From the sequence record PX068456.1: DNA of 64,000 bases; one strand, given 5' to 3'. The stretch is from a phage. Positions 2,757 through 12,862 of the stretch are shown piece by piece. The notes beneath the pieces were generated by a model that was not told the DNA's origin, made no database searches, and was given only the letters and a program-made list of their open reading frames with translations. The translations under genes were made by a program, and so were the position numbers. Within the stretch, counting starts at the first letter, position 1. The number at the start of each line of letters is the position of its first letter.

Positions 2757-2951
2757 CTATTTTTTACAAGGGATCAGTAAACTTCTCGCTACTGCTTCAC
2801 GAAAACCTTTACTTTTTATTAGATCTATTGTTGCAGGGTGACAAGTAAAAGCCTTTGACCATTTTTGATCACCTGGTTTACGGGCGAAAATGTATACTTC
2901 CCCGTCAATTTCATCCCAACGAGTATTGCTTGTTAGTTTTTTAAGCGCCAT
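2757..2951 (-). CDS. hypothetical small protein (64 aa)
   Basis: ORF track frame; internal ATG 2951 with AAGAGAAA RBS; cassette 2974-3030 upstream. Confidence 0.4.
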   Translation of the reverse strand: MALKKLTSNTRWDEIDGEVYIFARKPGDQKWSKAFTCHPATIDLIKSKGFREAVARSLLIPCKK

Positions 2952-2973
2952 GATGATTTCTCTTTTAGTTGTG

Positions 2974-3030
2974 AGCGGCACTATTGCCGCCCTACGCAAT
3001 ACATTCTACCCTATTTATAATTATTGTCAA
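2974..3030 (-). promoter_or_regulatory. promoter + stem-loop cassette (hairpin AGCGGCActattGCCGC variant)
   Basis: TTGACA at 3025-3030 (minus), hairpin 2974-2990. Confidence 0.5.
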
Positions 3031-3031
3031 A

Positions 3032-3301
3032 CTATTTTTTCAAGCTCGACCAGTCAAAACACGGCGGGATCTCGTTAAAACTTGTGCCCTGTAAAGCACA
3101 TAATTTTTTAGCAATAGCCGCCGTGACCTGGCGCTGTACGCGCGGATCTGCTACTGATTGGAGAAAGTAGGCGGCTTTATATGTGATCATGCTTTCGCCT
3201 GTTTCCTTGCTAACATGATGCACTATTTTAGCCTTATCATCTTTTACCAGGGTGTAACCGGATTCGATGGCCTTGATTGCAACGTCCAATGATATTTTCA
3301 T
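3032..3301 (-). CDS. hypothetical small protein (89 aa)
   Basis: ORF track; AAGAGATAAATC RBS; hairpin GGCGGGGAATACTCCCCCGCC at 3321-3341 in leader. Confidence 0.5.
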   Translation of the reverse strand: MKISLDVAIKAIESGYTLVKDDKAKIVHHVSKETGESMITYKAAYFLQSVADPRVQRQVTAAIAKKLCALQGTSFNEIPPCFDWSSLKK

Positions 3302-8279: not shown

Positions 8280-8834
8280 TTACACAATGCAATTTTCATA
8301 ATTTTTTAAGGCTTGTCTTTTTTCCTCTTCCGTCGGCATGTATGGCTGGATCTCTTCCTCTTCCAGGGTGGGCATGATTTCTTCCTCTTCCTCCTGGTCG
8401 CCCTGGTCTTCCTCTTGCGCTACTGCAACAAGTTTATTGATCTTCTCCTGGGCTTTAATCAATTTTGCATCTAGCACCATTTTAGCGGTGTTGTATACAG
8501 TCCAGGCCATGCGCTTTTCTTCGTATGCCTTATCTAGTGCGGCTAATTTAGCGGGATACTCTTCCAACACCTTAAAAGCCGGATCAATGCTGTACAAGGG
8601 ATTATTTTTAGCGTCATCGCTTGGATCTGCGGCGCTTGCAATGTCAGCGTTACCATTCGCCAGCCATCCAGGACGAACGGATCGCGTCCTGGTGTTGCCG
8701 TTGCTCTTTGCCGCTCGATTTCCTATCTGCTCCCCGCTATACCCTACCATGTGATCGATCATGTCATCTGGTATTATGCGCGGATCATTTGCGTCATGCT
8801 TTACCCAGGACTGGATCACATATTCACGCCCCAT
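8280..8834 (-). CDS. hypothetical protein with highly acidic Glu-rich C-terminal segment (184 aa)
   Basis: ORF track; RBS AGAAGAGG. Confidence 0.5.
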   Translation of the reverse strand: MGREYVIQSWVKHDANDPRIIPDDMIDHMVGYSGEQIGNRAAKSNGNTRTRSVRPGWLANGNADIASAADPSDDAKNNPLYSIDPAFKVLEEYPAKLAALDKAYEEKRMAWTVYNTAKMVLDAKLIKAQEKINKLVAVAQEEDQGDQEEEEEIMPTLEEEEIQPYMPTEEEKRQALKNYENCIV

Positions 8835-8835
8835 G

Positions 8836-9096
8836 TTAGTTCGCCTCTTCTGTTAGTAGTTTACATACCTTAAACATGCTTGCAGCGTCTTTTGACGGTA
8901 GCCAGCCTATCCGATACACTCCAGGATCTGGATTAGTTACATCAGTCAGTTGCGCGTTGCGATGATTAAAAATAGTGTAACCGCCGCCAGCACGGGGATA
9001 AACATTATCTTTAAACCTGATAGCGTATCTCGCCAGGTCGAACGTTGTAGCATGTTCAAAAGCGATCACATTATCAAAAACTTTTAGAAAAAACAA
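8836..9096 (-). CDS. hypothetical protein (86 aa), TTG start
   Basis: ORF track; GGAGGA RBS 5 nt before TTG. Confidence 0.4.
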   Translation of the reverse strand: MFFLKVFDNVIAFEHATTFDLARYAIRFKDNVYPRAGGGYTIFNHRNAQLTDVTNPDPGVYRIGWLPSKDAASMFKVCKLLTEEAN

Positions 9097-9098
9097 GA

Positions 9099-9245
9099 TT
9101 ATCCTCCCCAGCGTTTAAAGCCCGTTGCACGGTTATTTTTTAGCTCTCGTTTTAGTCTCTTGCAACGGTTTACAAGTGCAAACCGTGCCGGAGTCGTAAC
9201 AGTAGCGCCGTTTTTGGTGTGAATACTCATTACATATTGTTTCAT
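9099..9245 (-). CDS. tiny basic protein (48 aa)
   Basis: hand-translated; ATG 9245 after hairpin cassette 9265-9317; stop overlaps RBS of next gene. Confidence 0.3.
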   Translation of the reverse strand: MKQYVMSIHTKNGATVTTPARFALVNRCKRLKRELKNNRATGFKRWGG

Positions 9246-9264
9246 AAAGTTTTATCCTATGTAA

Positions 9265-9317
9265 GCGGGAATAGTTCCCGCTTTAAGATAGCTTATCAGG
9301 TTTTAGTGCAATGTCAA
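9265..9317 (-). promoter_or_regulatory. promoter + stem-loop cassette (TTGACA-17-TATCTT, hairpin GCGGGAATAGTTCCCGC)
   Basis: minus-strand reading. Confidence 0.45.
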
Positions 9318-9323
9318 CCGTTT

Positions 9324-9686
9324 TTATTCGTAAATTTTACCGCTTTCTACCCATACCATAACACGGCGCATGTTATCCCATGCATCTTGTCGCAGATTTA
9401 AGGCATGCAATTCTTCCGTGGTGCTCATACCTGGAACGGGCTTGCTATATGTTACAAAGAGATCGCCAGCATATTCATAAGCCAGGGTAAGATCACATTG
9501 AATCATCTTTTTAATCATAGCATCAAGCATCATATTAGCGGCATGTTGATCACGTTTCAGCGGTAACGTTGCGATCTGTGTGCGATAGCTTTCGATCCGT
9601 GCATCCACTGCATCACGCGAAAGGTTTTTCACGTCATCGCGGAAAGATACCAGGTTTAACATGATAGTATTGATTTGCTTGCTCAT
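9324..9686 (-). CDS. hypothetical protein (120 aa)
   Basis: ORF track; RBS AAAGAAAGGG; cassette 9709-9769. Confidence 0.5.
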   Translation of the reverse strand: MSKQINTIMLNLVSFRDDVKNLSRDAVDARIESYRTQIATLPLKRDQHAANMMLDAMIKKMIQCDLTLAYEYAGDLFVTYSKPVPGMSTTEELHALNLRQDAWDNMRRVMVWVESGKIYE

Positions 9687-9708
9687 TGTGTTACCCTTTC
9701 TTTGTTTT

Positions 9709-9769
9709 GGCGGGAAACCATTTCCCCGCCTTATGGAGTATATATTACCAAATTATTTTTCAGTGTCAA
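9709..9769 (-). promoter_or_regulatory. promoter + stem-loop cassette (hairpin GGCGGGAAACCATTTCCCCGCC)
   Basis: TTGACA at 9764-9769 (minus). Confidence 0.5.
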
Positions 9770-9772
9770 GAC

Positions 9773-10045
9773 TTAAAGCAAAAACGCTACATCTTGCGCT
9801 TTTAGTGTAGTGTCGATCATTTTCGGGCTTTTATAATCCACAAATCGCGCGGTTTTTTCAATAGCGAAACCGAGATAATCTTGTTTATTGAAATTACATT
9901 CTTTTTTAAACGTTTCCCGTGCCACTGTGATCGCTGCGTCCAGGGATAAACGTCCATCAATATTGATGTTAGCGAAAGATCCGCCACCGCGCATAGGTTT
10001 ACCAGTGATGCCAGCTACGATCATTGATGCGCTATATGATGCCAT
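9773..10045 (-). CDS. hypothetical protein (90 aa)
   Basis: ORF track; RBS AAGAGAGAAATAATC; cassette 10068-10128. Confidence 0.5.
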   Translation of the reverse strand: MASYSASMIVAGITGKPMRGGGSFANINIDGRLSLDAAITVARETFKKECNFNKQDYLGFAIEKTARFVDYKSPKMIDTTLKAQDVAFLL

Positions 10046-10067
10046 GATTATTTCTCTCTTCTGTTAT

Positions 10068-10128
10068 GAGCGGCACTATTGCCGCCCCTCGACAAGATGA
10101 ATACTACGCTACCAGGTGAGGAACGTCA
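10068..10128 (-). promoter_or_regulatory. promoter + stem-loop cassette (TTGACG, hairpin AGCGGCActattGCCGC)
   Basis: minus-strand reading; first cassette of the leftward array. Confidence 0.45.
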
Positions 10129-10240
10129 ACCATTTTTTTAATCTTTTTTTCATTTCTTTTTTGCTTGCTATCTATAAAGGAAACGGCTATTATCTTTCTA
10201 CCGCGCCAACCAGGGCGCACATCAAAGAAAGGGCGATACC

Positions 10241-10507
10241 ATGACAAATACTCCTTTACATCTCATGCACTCATTGGGCTGGCAAGGCGGCACGGTGCAC
10301 CAGGTAGCAAGCGCAACGGGCTTAAAGGTTGAAACCGTTCTCAACCTGGGCGATCATAAGGTGGAAGAAATAGAAAACTTTGATCCGTTCGCTGATGGTT
10401 ATCTATGGGCTTGCAGTGGCGGCGGGGAAAGCAAGATCCCGCCAGGGGCGCGGGGCGACATGTATTTTTGGTTAGGTGTCCTATCCTGGCAAGAAAACAA
10501 AAAATAA
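10241..10507 (+). CDS. hypothetical protein (88 aa) in GC-rich island
   Basis: ORF track; RBS AAAGAAAGGGCG; local GC visibly higher than flanks. Confidence 0.4.
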   Translation: MTNTPLHLMHSLGWQGGTVHQVASATGLKVETVLNLGDHKVEEIENFDPFADGYLWACSGGGESKIPPGARGDMYFWLGVLSWQENKK

Positions 10508-10508
10508 T

Positions 10509-10538
10509 CTTGACAAGCCCAGGGATCGGGCTTATACT
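10509..10538 (+). promoter_or_regulatory. sigma70-like promoter (TTGACA-18-TATACT) with no ORF downstream
   Basis: hexamers read directly; downstream ~150 nt GC-rich and lacks an ATG-initiated ORF. Confidence 0.4.
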
Positions 10539-10759
10539 GTTTTACATACAGAAGAGGAAACGCCACCCCCACGGCGTAAAGGCGGGGCTAACATACCAGG
10601 GGGCACTGGTTGGAAGGTTGATCGCCGGTAGCTCGTCCAAAATAAATTTGTAAAGAAATGTAAAGATAAAAATAATCGCTTGCTTTTGTTGTTGGTTATG
10701 CTATTCTTATTGTATGGCGAGGGGACACGGGAGCGCGAGACAAACACCGCCCCTGCGCG

Positions 10760-10885
10760 TTATTCTGTAAATGAGAAAAATTCTCATTTGCTAATGATTC
10801 TCATTCTCTTAGTGAGAATGCTTATCATTTACATAATTAAATGATAATGATTCTCATTTACAAATGAGAATGATTATCATACGCA
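10760..10885. repeat. cluster of Fur-box-like palindromes (AATGAT-T-ATCATT / ATGAGAAT..ATTCTCAT)
   Basis: at least four overlapping copies; related copies at 56-92, 250-275, 1118-1192. Confidence 0.45.
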
Positions 10886-10904
10886 TACCCATAAAAACAC
10901 GAAA

Positions 10905-11104
10905 TTGAACTTTTCATTTTTGATTTTTCTACGGAAAAAGGCAAAAAAACTTTAAATAAACTGGGGAATTTTTAAAAAATTGAAGTTTTCATTTTCAAAA
11001 TCTGGATAGAAATACATACAAAAACTTTAAATAATTTTGACCAAACTTGAACTTTTCATTTTCAAAATTTGTATCCAAAAATCTGTAAAAACTTTAAATA
11101 ATTT
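10905..11104. repeat. three ~60-65 bp direct repeats (TTGAACTTTTCATTTTCAAAAT ... AAAAACTTTAAATAA)
   Basis: units at about 10905-10960, 10980-11036, 11047-11104 in an AT-rich non-coding stretch. Confidence 0.55.
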
Positions 11105-11320
11105 TGTCCTTTTTATAAAAATGATTTTACTGTTCTGTTATAAATAGTAGTTAAGAGATAGTATGCCTTTTAAAAACCAGATATCATAATCCAACAAACA
11201 AATTAAATAATTTATTAACAGAGTACAAAATAATATTTACTCTGAATATATTATTCAGAGGGTGAATTTCCGTACATGAAACCCACACCCCTTTTTATAA
11301 AAATAAAAATTTTCAAAATA

Positions 11321-11872
11321 TCAGGAAATATCAGATTGTGTTTTTAGAAAAACAGCAAGGTCTGTATGCCATTTTCCTAAAAGATTTTGTCCTTTCCAAC
11401 AATCCTTATTTTCCACGTCCCGATCCCACATCCCCATTTTGATACCATAAATAGAATCATAGGGGCTTGCCTCTACGAACTCCTTATCTGCGTAAGCGAT
11501 AAGTTTATTTTTGAGATCTTCATTTTGTGTGTATTTAAGATACAAACCACGCTTGACAATCTTCTCCCGTAAAGAAGCCCAGGTATCTTCATCATAATCT
11601 TTAACTAATCTGCCTAGTCGCTTATAATATGCTTGTTCTTTTTCTCCTGTATATCTTAGATCTCCGGTTAAAATAGAAGATGCAATGTTGTAATCATAAA
11701 ACAAACATGCTTTTCTCCACATCATATATTGTTCCACACAAGTAAATTCAACAGAACTTGTAATAGAATTATTATACTTGGGAGCTAAAGGTTCAATAAA
11801 AGATGATAGATACCAGTTGCTAAATTCATCTTTTGCCGAGAAGAAGAACACATACTTATCAGTAATCCGCAT
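11321..11872 (-). CDS. NADAR (YbiA-like, DUF1768) domain protein
   Basis: motifs FFFS..EFSNW, EQYMMW, EASPYDSIYGIKMG and KGQNLLGK match YbiA/NADAR pattern by eye. Confidence 0.6.
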   Translation of the reverse strand: MRITDKYVFFFSAKDEFSNWYLSSFIEPLAPKYNNSITSSVEFTCVEQYMMWRKACLFYDYNIASSILTGDLRYTGEKEQAYYKRLGRLVKDYDEDTWASLREKIVKRGLYLKYTQNEDLKNKLIAYADKEFVEASPYDSIYGIKMGMWDRDVENKDCWKGQNLLGKWHTDLAVFLKTQSDIS

Positions 11873-12862
11873 TTACACCTCCTTATTGTATACTAACTTG
11901 CCACCATATTGTGTAATAATTTTTTGAAGATTTTCCAAATCAGAAACACTTACTGTTTCTGTATGACCGTCTTTCAACTCTCTTGCTGTTAAAATACCAG
12001 TTTTTAATTTTTTCTTTATAGCTCTTTCAGCAGCCTTACACTGTTTCACTGTGCTAAAATCATATAAACAAATACGTTCCATAAAAAACAGATTACGGCT
12101 ATTTTGAATGTTTAATCGCCTATCACTATCTTTAGCTATACCAAACTTAAGAGCAACTATAATATTATCATCCTTAACAATATTAATATATAACTGCTGC
12201 TGACTATGACCAGCACACATAGGACAACCTCGACCGAGGCTTAATAAATTATTAGCACTCCCTATCTGCTCACCATGCACAAGACAAAGATATTTAAACT
12301 TACCTATAGAAGAGGGTTTGGTAATCCAATCTACCCAGACATACCCTTTCCCTTCTACTTCCTTTTTTACCCTATAGGTGATCTGGTCTTCTGTATACCG
12401 ATAGTTCCCACAACGACACGGAATATACCCTCGTTTAAGGTTATCTCCTTCAGAGTAAAATTTACCATCACAAACACCTGCTTGAACATATTCATCATGA
12501 GAGCAAACAGGACATTCAACCATCCAGATAATATTCCTACATCCTTTACCCCGTGTTCCTGTGTTAGTGAAGATAGTGCCTTCCTTAAATTCCCCTGTAG
12601 AAAAGAAATCTGCAATATGTTGATCGTCGGACATTGTTTGTGACTTCCTTATATTCTTCCTCCTACATTGTGGACAACCGCTACCACATTTAAAACTGTT
12701 AATACTTGTAGTATCCCATTTATAACCACAATGGCACAACAAATCAAGTTTTGTGTGGACCCCTTTCCATTGTCCCGTCCATCCTAAGATTTGGATTTGC
12801 TTACTCTCTGCTATTGGTATACACTCTTCTTTATATTGTTCCCATGATTTTGGTGCTGCCAT
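11873..12862 (-). CDS. Cys-rich protein with three zinc-ribbon-like repeats and C-terminal T5orf172 (GIY-YIG-like) domain; putative nuclease/DNA-binding
   Basis: repeated C-x-C...CPxC modules; C-terminal KFGIAKDSDRRL resembles T5orf172 KIGxT..RR motif. Confidence 0.45.
   Translation of the reverse strand: MAAPKSWEQYKEECIPIAESKQIQILGWTGQWKGVHTKLDLLCHCGYKWDTTSINSFKCGSGCPQCRRKNIRKSQTMSDDQHIADFFSTGEFKEGTIFTNTGTRGKGCRNIIWMVECPVCSHDEYVQAGVCDGKFYSEGDNLKRGYIPCRCGNYRYTEDQITYRVKKEVEGKGYVWVDWITKPSSIGKFKYLCLVHGEQIGSANNLLSLGRGCPMCAGHSQQQLYINIVKDDNIIVALKFGIAKDSDRRLNIQNSRNLFFMERICLYDFSTVKQCKAAERAIKKKLKTGILTARELKDGHTETVSVSDLENLQKIITQYGGKLVYNKEV

Follow-up and report, generated by a model that had tools for sequence, protein, structure and literature searches.

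The window analysed here is a stretch of 64,000 nucleotides (64 kb) from phage record PX068456.1, and the subject of this report is a small element within it, RNA1, which lies directly downstream of a sigma-70-type promoter termed P1. The window belongs to a Justusliebigvirus (subfamily Stephanstirmvirinae), a phi92/phAPEC8-like Escherichia coli myophage of a type whose genomes measure ~147 kb. The reading we favour, at somewhat better than even confidence, is that RNA1 is a transcribed and structured non-coding RNA, made early by the host RNA polymerase and located within a conserved non-coding control region. This 'early control region' spans ~10046-11320 and is common to the phi92/rV5-type myophages. 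A non-coding RNA gene near 10545 had been proposed in the initial annotation, and comparative evidence now supports it: the conservation starts at this point, it reaches into phages whose flanking genes no longer align, a hairpin covaries, and a conserved reading frame is lacking.

The features that carry this argument are the following.

10510..10538, plus strand: P1, a predicted sigma-70 promoter, TTGACA (10510-10515)-17-TATACT (10533-10538), with 11 of 12 consensus positions
10515..10533, plus strand: hairpin of the P1 spacer, AAGCCC-AGGGATC-GGGCTT, -8.8 kcal/mol
10545..10637, plus strand: RNA1, structured non-coding RNA candidate, ~93 nt here, covariance-model match of 98 bits
10561..10587, plus strand: candidate H-type pseudoknot of RNA1, CGCC-A-CCCC-AC-GGCG-(7 nt)-GGGG
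10588..10616, plus strand: long hairpin of RNA1, bulged and variable at its tip; in seven of nine pairs both sides have changed, with 87% of cells paired
10614..10631, plus strand: near-invariant 3' segment of RNA1, AAGGUUGAUCGCCGGUAG, with the family consensus AAGGUNNAUCGCCGG

In the order that we propose, a small plus-strand gene would be followed by a hairpin which ends its transcript and lies within the P1 spacer, then by P1 itself, by RNA1, and by a second promoter-RNA cassette, P2/RNA2 (10680-10767). Host RNA polymerase would fire P1 right after infection, and the resulting RNA1 would function as RNA, most likely in trans and as a stable small RNA, by binding a conserved host or phage partner via its invariant exposed segment AAGGUNNAUCGCCGG and/or the pseudoknot. 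The activity of P1, the 5' and 3' ends of RNA1, its stability, its action in trans and its partner are inferred.

Conservation and distribution of RNA1

The closest relatives of the window are numerous, with 142 phage records matching 9700-11300 in a megablast search; the best of them, Escherichia phages SD2 and EC.P2, are 98.8-98.9% identical, and EC.P2 is 100% identical over 10046-10900. A sensitive blastn search with 10046-10900 retrieved 242 records, including members of the Vequintavirinae (Klebsiella phages BIS47 and KB57, Cronobacter phages CR8 and PBES 02, Enterobacter phage F2M1E and Salmonella phage SSBI34) in which only 10541-10666 matches (query ~496-621), at 80-87% identity, while the open reading frame (ORF) upstream of P1 and the flanking genes no longer align as DNA. 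The blastn matches begin 3-6 nt past the -10 hexamer of P1, and a conserved -35/-10 pair lies directly upstream of them. For Salmonella phage SSE121, Escherichia phage 4MG, Erwinia phage pEa55 and Enterobacter phage FENT2, the match extends to ~10788 at 70-77% identity. In each such genome, leftward gene blocks border a gap of ~1 kb in which the RNA1 match sits, and the ORF, the promoter and the downstream sequence are syntenic across the Stephanstirmvirinae and Vequintavirinae. A search with the SSE121 version of the module reached 362 phage records.

According to a covariance model based on 30 homologues, RNA1 occurs once in the window and 54 times (46 distinct sequences) in related loci, of which 25 are metagenome contigs; almost all copies come from genomes of ~140-150 kb. 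In the Pectobacterium phage P7_Pc (locus L010, 1463-1927) the P1-RNA1 cassette is tandemly duplicated, each copy having its own promoter.

The conserved unit does not behave as a protein-coding sequence. Its homologues measure 85-96 nt and differ by insertions and deletions of 1-10 nt, with length differences that are not multiples of three, and no reading frame across 10545-10640 is open in all 46 distinct sequences. The initial annotation had described ~150 nt of GC-rich sequence downstream of P1 that lacks an ATG-initiated ORF. The richness in GC holds (0.56 at 10540-10640 and 0.61 at 10700-10760), whereas the absence of ORFs does not hold literally, given that mechanically called ORFs cross the stretch (10405-10653 and 10476-10631 on the plus strand, 10532-10747 on the minus strand), though none of them is conserved.

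RNA1 also matches no RNA family described in Rfam. The covariance-model search that the initial annotation had asked for, run against Rfam 15 at E <= 10 over 9000-12000 and 10535-10790, gave chance matches only, the best over 10535-10790 scoring 11.6-15.8 bits (E = 1.3-8) against gathering scores of 44-100 bits. ARAGORN found neither tRNA nor tmRNA genes in the window, and a blastn comparison of 10540-10790 with 5,426 E. coli genomes gave no match. When bacterial genomes were scanned for the invariant 17-mer of RNA1, at least 120 matches were returned; those listed all come from unrelated GC-rich genomes, and none of them fits the profile of the module (best E = 0.06).

Structure and covariation of RNA1

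Covariation was computed on the 46 distinct sequences with shuffled and slid-register controls, an earlier set of 30 sequences having given similar results. Across the whole structure 89.9% of cells are paired, compared with 83.1% in shuffles; nine pairs have changed on both sides, a number matched by none of 500 shuffles, and the covariation score is 0.183, with slid registers reaching at most 0.046. RNA1 thus displays the compensatory changes that are expected of a structured non-coding RNA. The structure supported in this way is the long bulged hairpin, whose tip varies between 0 and 10 nt among phages; at one of its pairs, for example, A-U alternates with G-C in 31 versus 15 sequences, and this switch also occurs within the Mydovirus-like clade. 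Among the cells of the structure 45 are G-U or U-G and only five A-C or C-A, an excess which favours an RNA of the plus strand, that is, of the strand that P1 would transcribe.

Upstream of the hairpin, a compact H-type pseudoknot is weakly supported. Its stem S1 would pair CGCC (10561-64) with GGCG (10573-76) and its stem S2 CCC (10568-70) with GGG (10585-87), and the AA of the connecting loop is invariant. In S2, CCC/GGG alternates with CCA/UGG (C-G with A-U at one pair) in 33 versus 11 sequences with two exceptions, and the next pair shows single G-C and C-G variants. RNAalifold prefers a different partner for the same GGCG (within CGGCG, 10572-10576), namely the invariant CGCCG at 10623-27, which would close the whole domain. 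Both this closing helix and S1 are invariant, and therefore the two alternative pairings of GGCG are indistinguishable by covariation.

The promoter P1 and its spacer hairpin

P1 resembles a sigma-70 promoter in all elements that can be read from its sequence, with both hexamers at a spacing within the usual 16-18 bp and an A-rich, UP-like tract directly before them (10494-10509, AAAACAAAAAATAAT). The initial annotation had read the promoter as TTGACA-18-TATACT; the hexamers are as described, and the spacer is 17 nt long instead of 18. Both hexamers and their spacing are kept in all of the 25-30 homologues, in which the sequence of the spacer varies. Together with its upstream A-tract, P1 agrees with the early-promoter consensus AAAA(N4)TGTTGAC(N17)TATAAT of the Certrevirus/phage CB7 group (PMC7344957).

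The short hairpin between the hexamers, which had likewise been noticed at the outset, is present and recurs among phages as pairing and not as sequence, with stems such as AAGCCC/GGGCTT, GCGCCC/GGGCGC, CCAGGC/GCCTGG and CAGGGGC/GCTCCTG. Its strength follows the position of the upstream gene. Strong hairpins (-9 to -16 kcal/mol) occur mostly where the plus-strand ORF stops 0-10 nt before the -35 hexamer, and weak ones (-2 to -5 kcal/mol) where it stops ~20 nt upstream; in P7_Pc a strong hairpin follows the first of the two RNA1 copies. The spacer hairpin is thus probably a terminator or 3' stabiliser of the upstream ORF transcript which overlaps P1.

The remainder of the control region

Downstream of RNA1, the control region continues with a second cassette, a cluster of palindromes and an array of repeats.

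10649..10666, plus strand: conserved A/T-rich direct repeat TGTAAAGA(N2)TGTAAAGA, upstream of P2 and conserved in both subfamilies
10680..10707, plus strand: P2, candidate promoter TTGCTT-16-TATTCT, weak here (7/12) and absent from the promoter-scan listing
10714..10767, plus strand: RNA2, GC-rich unit of ~55 nt with the conserved motifs GAGACAAACACCG and UGCNCGYYAUUCUG
10772..10879, no strand assigned: five Fur-box-like 7-1-7 palindromes, TGAKAATNATTMTCA, the first beginning 4 nt after the ATTCTG of RNA2
10851..10880, plus strand: P3, promoter-like site TTCTCA-18-TATCAT (9/12), overlapped by the Fur-like boxes; weak evidence
10902..11122, no strand assigned: three AT-rich, iteron-like direct repeats, spaced 75 and 67 bp apart, GC ~0.20-0.26

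The A/T-rich repeat may serve as an UP element or bind a protein. P2, poor as it is in the window, aligns with better promoters of relatives (TTGACC...GATAAT, TTGCAA...TATATT), and at the position of P3 relatives have an extended -10 promoter. For RNA2, a common fold with an outer stem and an inner CCGG hairpin performed no better than shuffles, and RNA2 is therefore counted as a conserved sequence cassette only. Several relatives carry additional RNA2-like cassettes with their own promoters ~7 kb away, in either orientation, and rV5 (locus L224, 1600-1860) is without RNA1 and has instead two RNA2-like cassettes in tandem, with a Fur-like box after each of them. In rV5, gp193 (ORF 198, minus strand) is annotated across the first RNA2-like cassette and most of the second; it is probably not a real gene.

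The palindromes resemble Fur boxes, defined by GATAATGATAATCATTATC or by the 7-1-7 motif TGATAATNATTATCA, and the resemblance is one of sequence only. Across the window there are 12 palindromes of the 7-1-7 type against 2.15 expected, and the 19-mer Fur consensus is matched five times at three or fewer mismatches, against 0.05 expected. Relatives have one to five TGAKAATNATTMTCA palindromes, the first always 4 nt past the ATTCTG of RNA2, with a spacing of 29 bp in Certrevirus, and phage 4MG carries a perfect TGATAATGATTATCA at the array. These clusters suggest that host Fur, and with it iron status, is wired into the early region of a virulent phage. More Fur-box-like palindromes occur in the window at 55-69, 250-264, 1117-1131 and 1175-1189. 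In one metagenomic clade (loci L037, L053 and L070) Fur-like boxes are missing from the ~10-60 nt after RNA2 and, by eye in the alignment, another repeated motif (TAGTNACG-like) replaces them, as would be expected if the operator sites followed a factor specific to the host.

The repeats at 10902-11122 consist of units of 79 nt in the window, within a range of 65-79 bp, and their three-repeat layout was present in all genera that were compared, in CR8, SSE121 and pEa55 and, by eye, in rV5, with a sequence that is specific to each genus. They look like iterons, and replication may originate at this site. Another long stretch without genes lies at 1-1400 of the window (1.36 kb in SD2), bounded at either end by Fur-like boxes and with a very AT-rich, repeat-laden core (751-1200) of GC 0.20-0.23; it resembles 10046-11320, and copies of RNA1 or RNA2 were not detected in it.

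The small plus-strand gene and its neighbours

Upstream of P1, the control region holds one protein gene and two further promoter candidates.

10101..10129, minus strand: leftward sigma-70-like promoter TTGACG-17-TAGTAT with an upstream A-tract, 9/12
10165..10193, plus strand: candidate promoter of the small ORF, TTGCTA-17-TATTAT, 9/12; weak evidence
10241..10507, plus strand: small conserved protein gene, ATG start, 88 aa, phrog_19316, the only plus-strand gene of its block

The initial annotation had called 10241-10507 the only plus-strand ORF in the left 15 kb. This is right for genes and not literally for ORFs, as the mechanical list contains other plus-strand ORFs of at least 75 aa in this part, each of which overlaps a longer ORF of the minus strand. 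Of 29 consecutive genes in SD2 (98.9% identical), the homologue alone is encoded on the opposite strand. The product matches phrog_19316 end to end (7.7e-58), and tblastn finds homologues of 37-96% identity, sharing the conserved N-terminus LGWQGGTVHQVAxATGL, which adjoin the same RNA module in distant phages. We therefore regard 10241-10507 as a genuine ancestral phage gene. In a Certrevirus-like (CR8-like) contig (L027, 1-231) the homologue lies on the strand opposite P1-RNA1, and thus the orientation of the gene relative to the RNA module is not fixed.

As to the protein itself, a collection of 5.8 billion proteins yielded 21 clusters at E <= 0.001, most of them metagenomic and without a name, and a profile search of 1.8 billion proteins returned ~200 small proteins without Pfam domains; matches to large proteins in the latter search were discarded as leucine-rich-repeat artefacts. 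The AlphaFold2 model is all-alpha with five helices (pLDDT 94). Nothing exceeded the Pfam cut-off, PDB sequence profiles gave weak matches only (to a Rab-family protein and to leucine-rich-repeat and HU proteins), and Foldseek found no match to the PDB at E <= 0.001. An impression of a helix-turn-helix in LGWQGGTVHQVASATGL could not be confirmed and is not claimed.

The candidate promoter of the gene lies in a region that is invariant among close relatives. The leftward promoter, which also agrees with the Certrevirus early-promoter consensus (PMC7344957), probably drives the minus-strand genes that start at 10045. Near 10046-10100, many close relatives (alia, PATM, phiWec187, Antha and others; loci L001/L002, ~2880-3140) carry ~255 bp of extra sequence, flanked on both sides by the leader sequence TGCCATGATTATTTCTCTCTTCTGTTATGAGCGGCACTATTGCCGCCC, of which the second copy has diverged; the window, SD2 and EC.P2 are without it. 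On the other side of the control region, a NADAR-domain gene (11321-11872, minus strand; Pfam 2.6e-36) adjoins a gene for a CapR/T5orf172-domain endonuclease (11873-12862, minus strand; PHROG 'endonuclease'), which is likely a mobile homing-endonuclease gene. The gene annotated at this position is 990 bp long in the window and SD2, 1191 bp in PATM and 1398 bp in alia.

Proposed action in trans and alternative explanations

A trans-acting RNA is favoured over a replication primer for two reasons. The promoter-RNA units are modular, being duplicated, replaced or placed at second loci in different phages, and the invariant segment of RNA1 is not needed for the supported hairpin. Several observations weigh against this reading. 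The fold of the single sequence is not more stable than that of shuffles (minimum free energy -27.3 kcal/mol, z = +0.5), and folding either strand of RNA1 (z = +0.5 and +0.6) is uninformative. Most of the covariation separates a few clades and hence reflects few independent events; the pseudoknot depends essentially on the one covarying pair with its two exceptions, and S1 and the closing helices, which never vary, draw no support from covariation. No intrinsic terminator follows RNA1 on the plus strand, the sequence past 10637 being A/U-rich without a stem, and RNA1 does not have the Rho-independent terminator and 3' U tail of an Hfq-type small RNA (sRNA). Its 3' end is therefore undefined and a longer transcript is possible: RNA1 may be just the 5' part of it, and transcripts from P1 may continue through P2 and RNA2. 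Within the window, neither complements of conserved RNA1 segments, as a possible target, nor copies or complements of GAGACAAACACC and GGTTGATCGCCGGTAG were found more often than chance predicts, and no published description of RNA1 or RNA2 was found in the literature. Finally, the strict synteny of RNA1, RNA2, Fur-like boxes and iteron-like repeats suggests one composite cis-acting region in place of free-standing sRNA genes.

The alternative that survives best, which we consider possible but unlikely, assigns the module to an origin of replication. G-rich transcripts of the tandem rightward promoters P1, P2 and P3 would enter the AT-rich, iteron-like repeats and there form an R-loop or primer or activate unwinding, so that the structure of RNA1 would serve primer formation and not regulation in trans. 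Much of the architecture is consistent with this. Three rightward promoters in a 1.2-kb gene-free gap face a region of GC 0.20-0.26 with three direct repeats of 65-79 bp, and there is no plus-strand gene downstream for them to express. GC skew is positive across 10200-10800, which would make the transcript G-rich. The order of RNA cassettes, palindromes and three repeats recurs in CR8, SSE121, pEa55 and rV5, with repeat sequences that differ by genus, as expected of iterons that co-evolve with their initiator. The genome paper of rV5 marks a 'non-coding' box and did not locate the origin (PMC3606486). On the other hand, cumulative GC skew reaches its minimum near 15.5 kb, at a switch of transcription, and not at the module; RNA2-like cassettes also occur elsewhere in the genome and in either orientation; and RNA1, of which P7_Pc has two copies with their own promoters and in whose place rV5 has an RNA2-like cassette, shows a modularity that is typical of genes. 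T7-like promoters for leading-end entry were also considered and rejected, since the genomes of PhiTE and PVP-SE1 reportedly have circular permutation and terminal redundancy.

It is rather doubtful that RNA1 is a cis-acting leader, riboswitch-like or put-like, which controls read-through into RNA2, the Fur-box region and P3. The switch would then consist of the mutually exclusive pairings CGCC:GGCG and GGCG:CGCCG, and GGCG (10573-76) is indeed able to pair with either CGCC (10561-64) or CGCC(G) (10623-27). With its invariant loop adenines, the small H-type candidate of RNA1 is similar to pseudoknot riboswitch aptamers, and the put sites of phage HK022 lie directly downstream of an early promoter, as RNA1 does. 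However, neither a downstream plus-strand ORF nor a recognisable terminator is present to be regulated, no Rfam riboswitch model matches even at E = 10, and the three GC-rich 4-5-mers are all invariant, such that neither alternative helix has support from covariation.

A broader model, speculative and also rather doubtful, would join RNA1, RNA2, the Fur-box array, P3 and the iteron-like repeats into a composite hub by which a strictly virulent phage reads host iron via Fur and gates early transcription or the initiation of replication, with RNA1 as a new class of phage RNA which binds a conserved host factor or defence protein, as a decoy comparable to pseudo-ToxI.

Still less probable is an element that acts at the level of DNA only, whether as protein-binding sites or as a DNA hairpin or cruciform for packaging, recombination or transcription factor binding, its RNA being without function. 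Long invariant stretches (ATCGCCGG, ACGGCG) do point to conservation of sequence more than of structure, RNA2 has conserved motifs without a supported common fold, and the neighbouring palindromes are clearly operators of the DNA type. In contrast, the covariation of the hairpin pairs, with the 45:5 preponderance of G-U over A-C, is what an RNA of the plus strand should show, unlike duplex DNA or a cruciform, the conservation begins at the predicted start of transcription, and a conserved promoter lies directly upstream.

The last explanation concerns the composition of the locus. The initial annotation had described 10200-10750 as a GC-rich island, and this segment is in fact the GC maximum of all 551-bp windows in the 64 kb (0.499 against a mean of 0.378; z = 3.9), with 0.03% of windows reaching the same value. 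The sole other 300-bp peak of at least 0.48 (8381-8990, up to 0.51) lies mostly within the minus-strand gene 8280-8834, whose product has an acidic, glutamate-rich C-terminal part. Recent horizontal acquisition, or a moron brought with its own promoter from a donor of higher GC, had been suggested; this contrast (0.50 against 0.378 for the genome), a gene strand opposite to that of the neighbours and promoter-like and terminator-like signals of its own speak for it, and it is very improbable: neither sporadic presence among close relatives nor a composition pointing to a foreign source was found, the ORF, P1 and the downstream RNA hold the same position in two phage subfamilies (in Justusliebigvirus, Phapecoctavirus, Seunavirus, Certrevirus, Mydovirus, Henunavirus and metagenomic relatives), and homologues are lacking in the 5,426 E. 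coli genomes and among the bacterial 17-mer matches listed (at least 120). The GC of the module stays at 0.45-0.56 in every phage, while that of the surrounding DNA ranges from 0.38 in the window phage to 0.51 in CB7, and therefore the comparison identifies the island not as an import but as an ancestral, conserved GC-rich element which stands out in an AT-rich genome. The contrast would then result from purifying selection on a GC-rich RNA and gene.

Significance and comparison with known systems

The phages that carry such regions, among them phi92, phAPEC8, PVP-SE1, CR3, the Klebsiella Mydoviruses and relatives of rV5, infect a broad range of hosts, and in therapy and biocontrol they are widely used or have been proposed for use. 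The long stretches without genes in these phages are at present unannotated or covered by spurious small ORFs. RNA1 is more conserved than most proteins of these genomes. It can be tested as a possible early RNA effector of the phage or as an element of replication control; once defined, it would improve the annotation of at least 360 genomes, and it could reveal how these phages take over Enterobacterales hosts or sense their state.

Several known systems offer parallels. The trans-acting sRNAs of phages and prophages, such as DicF (Qin prophage), IpeX, AgvB/AsxR, 24B_1 (Stx phages) and svsR, are like RNA1 short, non-coding and placed behind a host-type promoter in a phage genome. The DicF-type sRNAs belong to temperate phages, usually end in a Rho-independent terminator, depend on Hfq and have defined seed regions. 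RNA1 differs from them in that it occurs in strictly virulent myophages of ~145 kb, shows no terminator and has no match in Rfam. The svsR RNA is described as an sRNA of an NC-SV-like prophage (PMC12803456).

Among the small RNAs of lytic phages, RNA1 differs from RNA C and RNA D of T4 in that it has its own promoter and that the 64-kb window contains no tRNA gene. These two are processed from a tRNA gene cluster and, like the sRNAs of PAK_P3, they are abundant small RNAs with an unresolved role.

The replication origins of ColE1 (RNA II), T4 (oriF/oriG) and T7 (primary origin) share with the module promoters that face an AT-rich unwinding region and, upstream of this region, a structured transcript that is rich in G. 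The RNA1/RNA2 cassettes, however, are modular and multi-copy and lie beside a three-repeat, iteron-like array, which is absent from these origins. The aptamers of preQ1-I/II, SAM-II, guanidine-III and fluoride riboswitches resemble the RNA1 candidate in their compact, GC-rich pseudoknot and in the conserved adenines of the long loop; RNA1 differs from such H-type riboswitches in having no regulated downstream gene, no Rfam match at E <= 10 and a pseudoknot that is weakly supported.

A parallel within the same phage group is pseudo-ToxI of the Pectobacterium phage PhiTE, a pseudoknot-forming, trans-acting mimic of the antitoxin that acts against ToxIN abortive infection and consists of a 36-nt tandem repeat which expands under selection (Blower et al., 2012; PMC3475682). 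Identity of RNA1 with pseudo-ToxI was rejected, as the latter occupies a different locus (phiTE_202/203 at 106.7 kb) and the RNA1 module of PhiTE is a separate match (L088). RNA1 is a single unit of ~95 nt with a long hairpin, and 10545-10640 contains no tandem repeat; tandem repeats of ~36 nt mark type III antitoxins. Pseudo-ToxI provides the precedent for RNA-based counter-defence in the group of phages to which RNA1 belongs.

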